A stretch of DNA of 64,000 nucleotides, from positions 32,001-96,000 of the IMG/VR virus record IMGVR_UViG_3300014050_000006, one strand, 5' to 3'. The notes beneath the pieces are model-generated. The model was not told where the DNA came from and did no database searches. It saw nothing but the letters and a program-made list of their open reading frames with translations. A program made the position numbers and the translations under genes. Positions 36,439-60,088 of the stretch are shown here, one piece after another (the first letter of the stretch is position 1; the number at the start of each line of letters is the position of its first letter). Source of the DNA: a virus.

Positions 36439-37254
36439 TTAAGCAGGAATACTAATACTAGCAGCAGATTTGACAGGAGCTTCTAGCGTGATAGATGCTA
36501 CTTGAATGTCGTCTAAGCTTGTATTAGATGTGAAGTTTGCAATCTTTGCATCAGCAACAGTGTAAGTTAAACTTCCGCAAGCAATACTAACTGCATTTTT
36601 AGTATTATTTGCAAATTTTGGATTTGCGCTATCTCTCAAAATGATTTCTGCTTCTACTGTTACTTTAGGTGGTCCAGAAATAATATTTGCAATTGGAGTT
36701 AATGATCCTAGTTTGTTGACATATTCGCGTGGAATATCAAGAGTATATGTGAATGATCTACATTCATAAGCTGTTCCACCAAGAGTTACTGTAATTTCAT
36801 CTGGACGAATAACATTAATGTCATTAGCGCTACCTGCTGGATAAGTTGGATTACCAGCTGTATAAGTAGCGTCAAGAGCTTGAACGCTAACTGTTACAGT
36901 TGGTACGTTACCTACTGAACCTTCAACTGCATAAGAACTAATTAATCCACTTGGAATTGTAAGTGCGCCTGCGCCACTCAATATATATTGTTTACCAGCT
37001 ACATCAGCTAGTAAAGTGTCAAAATTATTTAAACCTAAAGTTGTATGATTATTAATTCCAGTAGCAAGAATATAAGAGAAATTTAATGTTGCAGTTGGTG
37101 GTTCTACTTGGATATTATCAATTGCATAAAGATTACCGAATTCGAAAATATCTTGACGACTAATGCTAAAATCAACGTCTGCGCTTTGGACTAGATTAAT
37201 TTCTGTTCCACCTGCGGTTAGTTTTTGTGCTGGATAGTATGTTACATTTCCCAT
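36439..37254 (-). CDS. Tail tube (major tail) protein
   Basis: 271 aa, beta-rich with an internal duplication; strong AGGAG RBS; high-expression codon usage; lies between neck and chaperone genes. Confidence 0.7.
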   Translation of the reverse strand: MGNVTYYPAQKLTAGGTEINLVQSADVDFSISRQDIFEFGNLYAIDNIQVEPPTATLNFSYILATGINNHTTLGLNNFDTLLADVAGKQYILSGAGALTIPSGLISSYAVEGSVGNVPTVTVSVQALDATYTAGNPTYPAGSANDINVIRPDEITVTLGGTAYECRSFTYTLDIPREYVNKLGSLTPIANIISGPPKVTVEAEIILRDSANPKFANNTKNAVSIACGSLTYTVADAKIANFTSNTSLDDIQVASITLEAPVKSAASISIPA

Positions 37255-39198: not shown

Positions 39199-39723
39199 TT
39201 ATAAATTTTCTAGATTCCTCATGTAGCTGGTATAAGTATAAGGTCTTGTTGGATCTTGATAAATATCATCTCCAGCAACTTGAAGAGGTTTTGCTTCATT
39301 AAGATTATAATTTTTAGTTAATATTTGTAGTTCGTCATTGATTTGTCTTCTTAATTCTGCATAAGTTTTTGCTAATTCATTTTTATTTACTTTTCTAGAA
39401 GAAAATCCATTTTCATTAATTTCTATTGTACTATCTGTGCTAGCTGCACCAAGAGCATTTCTAAAAAGTCTTTCATAATAATGAATACTATAAAGCATTT
39501 TAAATATACTTTTTTCAATATCTCCAAAAGTATCATCAAGTCCTTCTGGTACAGTTACTTCGTAAGTGTCCTCGCTTATATAAAATTTCTTATTAATTAA
39601 AATATTAAGATCGCCAATATTAGTTCTTAACCAAAAAGCAATACTAGCATGACTAAGATCATTTGGTTCACCTAATTCACGATATATTTCATCTGCAATA
39701 TCTACAATTTTATTAGTGGTCAT
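39199..39723 (-). CDS. Putative head-tail adaptor
   Basis: 174 aa helical protein, first gene of the neck cluster. Confidence 0.55.
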   Translation of the reverse strand: MTTNKIVDIADEIYRELGEPNDLSHASIAFWLRTNIGDLNILINKKFYISEDTYEVTVPEGLDDTFGDIEKSIFKMLYSIHYYERLFRNALGAASTDSTIEINENGFSSRKVNKNELAKTYAELRRQINDELQILTKNYNLNEAKPLQVAGDDIYQDPTRPYTYTSYMRNLENL

Positions 39724-39733
39724 ATAATAGATA

Positions 39734-39739
39734 TTACAC
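39734..39739 (-). promoter_or_regulatory. GTGTAA late-promoter-like motif
   Basis: 10 nt upstream of the adaptor ATG. Confidence 0.65.
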
Positions 39740-39786
39740 TATATAATATAGTTTATACATTATATCAATAATAAAATATTTAAGTT

Positions 39787-40011
39787 ATTTACCTTGACCC
39801 ACAGAGGACCAACTTTTCCATTAATTTCTTAAAGGGTTGGACTATATCTTTAGCTTTTTAAGCTATTGGGCGCTCTTGCTGGTTATTAAGAGAAACCATT
39901 TTCTCTCCAGTAGTCTCTACACCTTTTAAGGGATGGCCCTTAACTTGGCTCGGTATTATCATCAGCATTATCTGTTAAGACTTCACCGAGTTCACCCAAA
40001 CACAGGCAAAT
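39787..40011 (-). ncRNA. Group I ribozyme/intron core (IA-like, ORF-less, intergenic, apparently permuted at L1)
   Basis: Minus-strand elements: P3 UUGGGUG/CGCCCAA; P4 CUCGGU/ACCGAG; P6a UUAAGGG/CCCUUAA; R element GUAGAGACUA; P7.1-type insert; P8 UAGCUU/AAGCUA; S element AAGAUAUAGUCC; P9 with GAAA tetraloop; P9.0 AAC/GUU; omega-G at 39810. Confidence 0.9.
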
Positions 40012-40044
40012 TTTTATTTATTAATTATATAATCTCCTTTCTTG

Positions 40045-40989
40045 TTATAGATTAACTTTATGGGATGCATTCATGTAATGCGCATTTTCTAGATCAACAA
40101 AATGAATCATACTATCAATAATGTTATCTTTTTCTATAAGAACTCCTGCGCGGTAAATATGACCTTTTCTATTATTCATCATGAGACCTCCTTCAGTATG
40201 ATCTAACCACCAATTAACTGTAATCCATTGTTCTGAATTTTCATCATAATATTCATAAATTTCATTTTTTCTTCTTTCATCTACAAATCTTATCCATCTT
40301 ACATCAATAAAAACTTTTTGATTATGAGCAAGATTTTTTTTATCAAAAATGTTAGAAGTATTAATATTAAAATTATAATTTGGCTCTAGTTGCTCTCTTC
40401 CAATATCTGGCTCAATAGTAGAATATATTTGATTTTCATTTGCTTTTTTAACAGTTGTATTATCTATTGGATAATACGAGTAATATCCGTTATATACTGC
40501 GAAAGGTGTATTATCGTATGAATATGATTGATCAATAATACTAATATAATCTGAATAAATATATGCTATTTCAGCATAATCTGCAATTAAAATCCATTCA
40601 TTAATAAATTCTTGAGCTGGATTTCCTGCATTTATATAATACCCATTATTTGATGAAATAAGATACTGATCATTAGGATTTAATCTTGTATATGTACCAT
40701 TTACATTTCCTTCCGAAAAACCTTGAATAACTATTTGATTAACAAAATTAAGGAATCTCTCTTTTTTCAATCTTTGTGCTTTTTGAGTTCCTAAAAATTC
40801 AAAAGAATTTGTTGTTTTATTATAATTATAAATATGCCTTGCTACAAAAGAATATCGTGATGCAGGAGGACTAAGCTCAAACAATACTGGGTTATCATAC
40901 TCTACTTTAGTATATCTAAAATTATTAAATTCCGTTGGATTTATTTTTTTTCTTCGAGAACTAATAATACCTGCTTGAGATGCTATCAT
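40045..40989 (-). CDS. Hypothetical virion-associated protein
   Basis: 314-aa ORF containing a copy of the IxIxG..NGxY..W module; no homing-endonuclease motif seen. Confidence 0.7.
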   Translation of the reverse strand: MIASQAGIISSRRKKINPTEFNNFRYTKVEYDNPVLFELSPPASRYSFVARHIYNYNKTTNSFEFLGTQKAQRLKKERFLNFVNQIVIQGFSEGNVNGTYTRLNPNDQYLISSNNGYYINAGNPAQEFINEWILIADYAEIAYIYSDYISIIDQSYSYDNTPFAVYNGYYSYYPIDNTTVKKANENQIYSTIEPDIGREQLEPNYNFNINTSNIFDKKNLAHNQKVFIDVRWIRFVDERRKNEIYEYYDENSEQWITVNWWLDHTEGGLMMNNRKGHIYRAGVLIEKDNIIDSMIHFVDLENAHYMNASHKVNL

Positions 40990-41897
40990 GGCCCTGTATT
41001 TCCGTACATTATATAACCATTATTTCCAGTATGAAGAATAGATATTGCAGCAAATCTTCCTGCTGTTCTATATTGACTTGCGTATTCATTTATATTTATT
41101 CCAGTAATTAAAATTTGTCCCACGCCAACTTGTATAATTGTTGTATTAAAACCTAAAGGATTGCCAGCCGTTATTGTACCTGTAATTTCAGCTGCTGAAT
41201 TTGCCATGATCATTCTACTACTATAATTTCCAGAAATATTAAAATTAGATGAAACATTAATTATTTCTGGAGTAACATTAATTAAATTAGAATTATTTAA
41301 ATCAATTCCAGAATTAAATATGCCCGTGCTTGTAAAAGTTTTAGATCCACTAATAGTTTGTGTTCCAGAAGTATAAAGTATTCCGCTTGGTAAAGTTACA
41401 GAACCTCCAGCAGCTTCACCACTAAGTAATACTCCCGTGCCATTTACAGTTGGCCTTATTGAAAATGATGAATTACCACTTACTATAATATTTCCGCTAA
41501 CATATAATTTTGTTGTCCCTGTATTTGGAAGTCCACCAAGACCCAATGAATTTCCAGTTAATACAAAATCATTTCTATTAAAAGCGCCCATAATAACAGT
41601 ATTATCATCAAAAGCTTCTATAATTGGAAGACCAGCTATATCATTAACACTGAAAAGAGATCCAGAAAGATTATCTGTTACAGAAAATAAACGACCATTT
41701 GTGCCATCTATAGAAAATCTATCTAATCCAGTAGCATTAGAAACATAACTAGTCAAATTTAATCCACCATAATTATCATAACTCATTCTATTAACAAAGG
41801 CGCCGCCAGTGAAATTAGTATTAAATGAACTACCGCCAGCTGTTCCTGTGGTAAATTCCATTATTCCTGAGTTTGGATTAATTAATATATTAGCCAT
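40986..41897 (-). CDS. Short fibre protein
   Basis: Shares RPTVNGTGVLLSGE and YTxGxQTISGxKTF with the 1505-aa fibre; also has GRLFSVTDNLSGSLFSVNDIAGLP, a common phage fibre segment. Confidence 0.7.
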   Translation of the reverse strand: MANILINPNSGIMEFTTGTAGGSSFNTNFTGGAFVNRMSYDNYGGLNLTSYVSNATGLDRFSIDGTNGRLFSVTDNLSGSLFSVNDIAGLPIIEAFDDNTVIMGAFNRNDFVLTGNSLGLGGLPNTGTTKLYVSGNIIVSGNSSFSIRPTVNGTGVLLSGEAAGGSVTLPSGILYTSGTQTISGSKTFTSTGIFNSGIDLNNSNLINVTPEIINVSSNFNISGNYSSRMIMANSAAEITGTITAGNPLGFNTTIIQVGVGQILITGININEYASQYRTAGRFAAISILHTGNNGYIMYGNTGP

Positions 41898-60082: not shown

Positions 60083-60088
60083 TTACAC
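60083..60088 (-). promoter_or_regulatory. GTGTAA late-promoter-like motif
   Basis: 12 nt upstream of the portal ATG. Confidence 0.65.

Follow-up and report, generated by a model that had tools for sequence, protein, structure and literature searches.

A candidate naturally permuted, guide-first group I ribozyme standing alone between gene blocks of a phage genome

To our knowledge, natural group I ribozymes occur almost only as introns that heal an interrupted gene. The locus described here raises the question of what such a ribozyme may be doing when it stands between genes and its guide finds its partner behind the catalytic core. It is located at positions 39787-40011, on the minus strand, of a 64,000-nt stretch of DNA from an uncultured freshwater phage (positions 32,001 to 96,000 of the IMG/VR record IMGVR_UViG_3300014050_000006), which we refer to as the window and whose coordinates are used throughout.

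The ribozyme at positions 39787-40011 is a genuine member of group I. When positions 39400-40500 were scanned with sensitive Rfam settings, the group I intron model RF00028 matched at 39818-40059 on the minus strand (69.1 bits against a cut-off of 50, E 3e-17). Nothing else in that region rose above noise, and neither a match to the lariat-capping model nor an adjacent c-di-GMP aptamer was found there. An earlier note, made from the letters alone, had claimed an intact group I core on this strand and proposed an Infernal search with Rfam models; the match above cut-off bears this out, all helices that it named fit the sequence, and its coordinates for the guide, helices, omega-G and downstream site agree with the sequence as well. 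Across the whole 112.8-kb virus record from which the window is taken, no other group I match was found. A default-filter scan of the whole 64 kb with gathering thresholds missed the ribozyme because of its speed filters, even though the element scores 19 bits over the cut-off once a 1.1-kb piece is scanned alone. Two default Rfam scans of related loci (60 kb and 42 kb) also gave no match, although they covered a true copy in locus L002, and we therefore relied on scans of small regions and on blastn.

Read along the minus strand, the element begins with its guide (internal guide sequence), AUUUGCCU at 40004-40011, in which G40007 is the wobble G. The catalytic core follows at 39811-39999, where RF00028 and covariation support P3, P4, P5/P5a, P6/P6a, P7, P7.1/P7.2, P8, J8/7, P9 and P9.0. 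In the sequence, P3 is formed by 39999-39993 with 39872-39866 and P4 by 39990-39985 with 39954-39949. P6a occupies 39943-39926, P7 (GAGACUA) 39917-39911, P8 39865-39851 and AAGAUAUAGUCC 39850-39839. The insert of P7.1/P7.2 between P7 and the 3' strand of P3 identifies the element as an IA-type phage ribozyme. P9, with a GAAA loop, and P9.0 (AAC/GUU) lie 5' of omega-G at 39810, which is preceded by the GUU of P9.0 and marks the predicted 3' splice site, with the cut after it. Behind omega-G come a 19-nt linker (39791-39809, the putative fused "exons"), with a hairpin at 39809-39796, and the P1-like substrate strand AGGU/AAAU (AGGUAAAU, 39787-39794). This strand pairs with the guide over 8 bp, placing the predicted 5' splice site between U39791 and A39790, 19 nt beyond omega-G. 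A conserved AACUUAAAU (39778-39786), kept in relatives, lies 3' of the predicted cut site. The minimum-energy fold includes the closing helix between guide and site.

The ribozyme sits in a 321-nt gap between two minus-strand ORFs of 314 aa (40045-40989) and 174 aa (39199-39723). No ORF of 40 aa or more runs along its own strand, the sole ORF listed over it being a 40-aa frame on the opposite strand (39933-40055, plus), and no tRNA was found at or near it. The element is located past the stop codon of the 314-aa fibre-associated gene and ahead of the leader of the next gene, with a promoter-like GTGTAAT motif at 39733-39739 (minus), 16 nt before the start of the 174-aa gene. This upholds the claim that it is ORF-less and interrupts no visible gene or tRNA. 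Upstream, three concanavalin-like (Laminin_G_3) proteins are followed by a 303-aa fibre-like protein and the 314-aa protein, which had no Pfam or PHROG match and received no function from Atlas. Downstream, genes of 174, 147, 196 and 283 aa lead to a tail tube gene (Phage_tube_2, 36439-37254). The 174-aa protein has weak Atlas neighbours, DUF6712 and SU10_adaptor at 0.88, and is a possible head-tail adaptor, which we treat as a lead only.

The 174-aa gene is common to 16 related viral contigs, and the ribozyme is absent from these relatives (15-16 of them). Without it, the upstream gene and the 174-aa gene are mostly separated by ~20-55 nt, with larger gaps in two relatives (~110 nt in L004 and ~240 nt in L011). 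Both the leader TATATAGTGTAATATCTATTATATG and the GTGTAAT motif ahead of the 174-aa gene are kept in relatives that lack the ribozyme.

The end of the 314-aa gene has a history of its own. Homologous C-terminal regions are present in L002, L100 and L078, and similar ends in L126, L140 and L141. The frame after the stop codon (40021-40044, minus) reads QERRLYN before a second stop and resembles the true C-termini of homologues, KRNQLYI (L100), ERRPSTI (L126) and RNNRRNI (L140). The 314-aa gene thus stops 7 codons ahead of its apparent ancestral end, and L002 has a different early stop nearby. An AAGGAG past the stop was considered as a ribosome site or signal and rejected, as it represents leftover Arg-Arg codons of the ancestral C-terminus. 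Further upstream, the window (40900-41060, minus) and L002 (2931-3090) share near-identical DNA over the fibre-gene 3' end and ~90 nt at the start of the 314-aa gene, while the middle of the 314-aa protein has diverged (55% overall) and the fibre genes measure 303 and 895 aa. By its sequence, this pattern is one of mosaic exchange of fibre modules.

The 314-aa protein led us to the L002 copy, whose ribozyme core is ~99% identical to that of the window, against 55% for the flanking protein, and which matches RF00028 at 64.6 bits. Pattern scans of viral and metagenome contigs widened the family to at least 118 loci. Within it, the window belongs to a clade of 13 distinct sequences from at least 12 metagenome samples (the window, L149, L002, L078, L100, L126, L141, L158, L140, L154, L156, L159 and L160). 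A near-identity search of public phage records gave no match, and a scan of 185,579 species genomes with the clade pattern found no copy. We tested the core structure as 58 pairs written from the window sequence on an alignment of the 13 clade sequences. Across these, 93.3% of cells were paired and 28 pairs changed on both sides. None of 500 shuffles reached the observed value, and sliding the structure by 1-3 columns left 31-45%. P7 and AAGAUAUAGUCC were invariant in all 13 sequences. P9.0 was kept in most (76.9% of its cells paired), and a G followed it at the place of omega-G in all 13, allowing for a one-column slip in L158 and L160. Since the fold is kept through 28 doubly changed pairs, it is under selection and not a relic.

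We next turned to the pairing of the guide with the downstream site. Taken in the window alone, this 8-bp pairing is not significant and could be chance: on average, every 1.4 kb or so of the window contains an anchored match of at least 8 bp to the guide. The pairing carries weight because it is conserved at the homologous place and covaries in relatives. The downstream partner was present directly after the linker hairpin(s) in all 13 clade members. In class A, the guide core UUGCC (40009-40005 in the window) is kept in all copies and pairs with GGU/AA. In class B, GGCCC pairs with GGGU/C, except in L159, where UGCCC pairs with GGGU/A. In class C (L019, L055, L087, L102 and L113), UUGGCC pairs with GGCU/AA.

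The clade and these five sister class C sequences gave 17 distinct guide/site combinations, in which the G.U wobble was invariant (17/17). Its neighbours changed in a compensatory manner. The pair on its 3' side (guide-1/site+1) was U-A in 10 and G-C in 7 combinations, that on its 5' side (guide+1/site-1) was C-G in 12 and G-C in 5, and the guide+3 pair was U-A or C-G in 15 of the 17. Altogether, 101 of 119 cells were paired, compared to a mean of 82 when partners were shuffled, and none of 20,000 shuffles reached the observed value. The sisters L159 and L154 differ by a guide change from G to U together with a site change from C to A. The four closest copies share an unchanging 5-bp core, and their pairings of 8, 6, 5 and 10 bp differ by extensions that are not compensatory. 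By our count there were about four independent compensatory events, so the covariation test is sound but not deep. The P1 so formed is short, with 3-4 pairs on the exon side. The covariation check proposed with the original observation thus favours it: the pairing downstream of omega-G, with its U.G wobble, is retained in every clade member and its flanking pairs covary.

Several sequence features near the site were noted alongside. The segment AACUUAAA(U) after the predicted cut is kept in the window, L149, L002, L078 and L100, with a similar segment in L126, and its complementarity to UUUAAG, the 5' strand of P9, is limited to class A. In three class A copies (L002, L078 and L100), the 7-nt GCCUGUG of the guide recurs in the same sense across the loop and 3' strand of the linker hairpin. 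The window counterpart of this repeat is CUCUGUG (39800-39806, against 40001-40007 in the guide), and the repeat was not seen in long-linker copies. Two explanations of the 3' flank were rejected. It is not a duplicate of the guide and P3, as the likeness seen in class A is missing in L154, L156, L159 and L160. Nor is the site a Shine-Dalgarno sequence masked by the guide, since the GGCU of class C is not of that type and the window site lies 68 nt from the start codon.

The conserved helix could also belong to a catalytically silent, ribozyme-derived RNA, as a closing stem on a 3' stabiliser of the fibre-gene message or on a protein-binding platform. Such a role would suit a helix that is nested and forms in the minimum-energy fold, and a ribozyme that always follows the same kind of gene. 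However, the parts that only catalysis requires, namely J8/7 (AAGAUAUAGUC), the G-site in P7 and omega-G, are kept in 13 of 13 sequences. The G.U pair also remains fixed while its neighbours change, whereas a plain stem needs no wobble. We therefore consider a silent RNA unlikely.

If the element were a conventional intron, its 5' splice site would lie upstream. No conserved upstream 5' splice site was found within 0.9-1.5 kb in the clade of 13, and an anchored upstream match of at least 6 bp was absent in five of them, among which L154 could be searched over 66 nt only. The earlier note had seen no complementary exon immediately upstream of the guide; in the relatives, too, no upstream partner is kept. 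Two upstream sites can nevertheless be proposed in the window. Infernal aligned a P1 hairpin over the stop codon (40056-40030), but this hairpin has a C-G pair where the U.G belongs and aligns poorly in L002, with several non-standard pairs. The other candidate, GCAGGU/A at 40969, lies seven codons into the 314-aa ORF, pairs with the guide over 7 bp and occurs in L002 too. Because the DNA here is near-identical in the window and L002, the second occurrence offers no independent support, and L078, L100 and all of class B lack a homologous site. Neither site restores a reading frame. Splicing that joins the 314-aa and 174-aa ORFs fails, as no G-terminated 3' site works in frame with a U-ending 5' site, and the frames for adding 8 residues to the 314-aa protein or for an AAGGAG mini-ORF are not kept in L002. 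With both the upstream P1 strand and the interrupted gene of a conventional intron missing, we regard this explanation as quite improbable.

Canonical members of the same family show what has been rearranged. These interrupt polymerase-type and other genes, have no P2 and carry the guide just 5' of P3; the T4 td intron is an IA-type phage intron of this comparable, canonical kind. The ORF-less canonical phage introns of the DNA-polymerase type (L038, L070, L133, L137 and L145) share the core of the window element, including P7.1/P7.2, the lack of P2 and the position of the guide. They interrupt a gene, and their guide finds its exon partner 9-16 nt upstream in an ordinary P1 hairpin, whereas the partner in the window follows omega-G and no gene is interrupted. 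The distance from the wobble G to P3 is 12-13 nt in canonical introns (7 nt in L029 and L035) and 8 nt in the window. A guide in the canonical place with its partner downstream would make the element a circular permutation of an intron plus its ligated exons, opened in L1. This opening had been proposed in the earlier note, and the kept and covarying downstream pairing, the lack of an upstream partner and the canonical position of the guide support it. We conclude that the element is probably a naturally permuted, guide-first, L1-opened group I ribozyme, standing alone between fibre and head-tail gene blocks.

An intergenic ribozyme without an ORF or homing endonuclease, absent from 15 relatives that share its downstream gene, might also be what remains of a formerly mobile intron that is now decaying and functionless. 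Loss of pairs would be expected in that case, but here compensatory changes maintain the structure across at least 12 metagenomes and three guide classes, leaving this reading a slim chance. It is slimmer still that the released ribozyme, with its free guide and 3' omega-G, acts in trans to cleave or join RNAs with GGU/AA: the guide would be left unpaired once the short P1 dissociates, and engineered group I ribozymes do act in trans, but the conserved partner covaries in cis and a 5-bp guide has hundreds of matches and no specificity.

For the permuted ribozyme, the following mechanism can be proposed. The RNA would fold into a normal IA-type core, and the guide UUGCC, with its wobble G40007, would pair with AGGUAA (39794-39789) behind the hairpin that follows omega-G. 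In a first step, free guanosine or GTP bound in P7 would attack after U39791 and cut the transcript, so that the downstream RNA would begin with an added G (G-AAAUAAC...). In a second, less certain step, the 3'-OH of U39791 would attack behind omega-G. The linker of 19 nt would come free as a circle, and the upstream fibre-gene message would carry the folded ribozyme at its 3' end. Overall, the long late transcript would be divided at one fixed point, separating two gene modules. We judge guanosine-dependent cleavage after U39791 to be the most likely activity, and a reasonably probable one, while release of the 19-nt linker as a circle is offered tentatively.

What bears on the second step is found around omega-G and the linker. 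The permuted order, with the 3' splice site upstream of the 5' splice site, is the same in all 13 homologues, and the near-perfect identity between the window and L002 ends one base past omega-G. The linker is 18-21 nt long in eight copies of two classes and 55-77 nt and structured in five, the lengths for L158 and L160 being shifted by one base for the alignment slip. Its hairpin stems covary (GCUGC/GCGGC, GAAGC/GCUUC, GUGGC/GCCGC and UUGGC/GCCAA). In every copy, a pair between guide-1 and the first base of the linker is possible (G.U in class A and L159, C-G or U.G in class B), with L158 and L160 read one base further 5' than the alignment column. This may hint at a short P10 of 1-3 bp, and the change in L159 touches guide, site and linker together. 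Most of these hints, which are not proof, would fit cleavage alone as well.

The best reading of its role, from sequence context, may be a fixed processing site between transcription or translation units, giving a structured 3' end upstream and a 5' G downstream. A small gene, homologous among the class A copies and the short-linker class B copies (L126 and L141), lies between a fibre gene and the ribozyme; the L140 ribozyme is likewise preceded by a small gene whose C-terminus is similar. The gene downstream varies among homologues. The predicted cut lies 3 nt from the next AUG in L156 and L160, 12 nt in L154 and 14 nt in L159. In the window, it lies 68 nt before the AUG and upstream of the promoter-like motif of the 174-aa gene itself, which counts against this role. 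It is possible, though doubtful, that phages carry a family of permuted group I ribozymes in which both steps go to completion inside the cell, cutting late polycistronic messages at fixed points, adding a 5' G and releasing hairpin circles of 18-77 nt. If so, these ribozymes would form a system that processes mRNA, with a circular RNA as by-product or effector.

The GTGTAAT motif occurs 10 times on the coding strand of the window (minus strand, at 60088, 55925, 53535, 52769, 49005, 41913, 39739, 34133, 7943 and 754) and not once on the other strand. Most copies lie 11-32 nt before start codons, and they are often preceded by TATA(T/A)A. The motif is probably a phage-specific, perhaps late, promoter element, and some genes behind it would have very short leaders or none. 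In L100 and L078, GTGTAAT is found 9-10 nt ahead of the guide, and transcription may there begin with the ribozyme itself. For the window, the earlier note had suggested a TATAAT box as an independent promoter. The box is present at 40029-40024, but it has no matching -35, and its role as an independent promoter is not supported; neither a sigma-70-type promoter nor an intrinsic terminator was predicted on the minus strand at the ribozyme.

The sequencing runs that hold this stretch are freshwater metagenomes, with metatranscriptomes among them. In metatranscriptome X7, small contigs covered 39803-40003, the upstream gene and a far downstream gene; these are low-depth and assembled, and cannot show RNA ends. 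None of these contigs, which cannot prove transcription, lay over 39465-39802 or 40004-40067.

Two other group I-derived RNAs shape the 5' end of an mRNA and do more than excise an intron. GIR1, the lariat-capping ribozyme, no longer has P1 and reacts by branching, not with guanosine. The c-di-GMP-dependent group I ribozyme of Clostridioides difficile is an intron of normal order beside a riboswitch. The window element has neither GIR1 nor riboswitch-coupled features, RF00028 being its only Rfam match. Permuted intron-exon (PIE) constructs were reportedly engineered by Puttaraju and Been in 1992, and are usually split in a peripheral loop so that the intron halves flank a long exon. Unlike these man-made constructs, the window element is broken in L1, which leaves the whole ribozyme in one piece, and its "exon" measures only 18-77 nt in the clade. 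In engineered PIE constructs (reviewed in PMC4344496), the 3' splice site likewise precedes the 5' splice site and the intervening piece is predicted to become circular.

The earlier note knew of no natural phage example, and the literature that we searched likewise yielded no permuted group I ribozyme occurring naturally in a phage or bacterium. The ND5-717 intron of mushroom coral mitochondria was reported as the first natural case of group I back-splicing (Chi et al. 2019, PMC6545197). Its precursor is permuted, as we propose for the window element, and matures by back-splicing. However, ND5-717 is a giant intron that interrupts a gene, carries almost the whole mitochondrial genome in P8 and joins the ND5 exons, whereas the window element is compact and free-standing, with no coding exons to join. 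Bacteria have natural, self-splicing group II ribozymes that are circularly permuted, lack an ORF and have predicted circles of 15-86 nt (Roth et al. 2021, PMC8637638). These share the reversed splice sites and short linker, but belong to another ribozyme class with branching chemistry and different hosts. If our reading is true, the window element would be the group I counterpart of these bacterial ribozymes and a natural precedent for the engineered permuted introns that make circular RNA. Phages would then have turned group I chemistry to another use, such as cutting or 5'-tagging messages or making very small RNA circles.

Two further loci carry group I ribozymes of their own. The record holding L004, from a related phage, contains a second, different one (L019, 1340-1780, minus, 66 bits), again intergenic: the stop codon of a repeat-rich protein, which we guess to be leucine-rich-repeat-like, precedes it and a 271-aa gene follows. 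Its guide, GAAUUGGCC, has a 9-bp partner in GGCUAAUUU, ~150 nt past P9. In the cultured Flavobacterium phage vB_FspM_immuto (MW353175.1, ~144975-145265; L162, 785-1075), whose host is Flavobacterium sp. LMO8, a group I match of 76.9 bits lies behind the tail fibre genes and is partly annotated as the 44-aa hypothetical protein immuto26A_226. The candidate guide-first layout there spans ~145035-145265 and uses a guide/site pair different from those above. A terminator-like hairpin follows this ribozyme, and a rival 9-bp upstream match lies 300 nt away. Its guide GGUCCU can pair with AGGAU/C across a linker of 18 nt by our reading and, judged from these sequences, the ribozyme looks guide-first.
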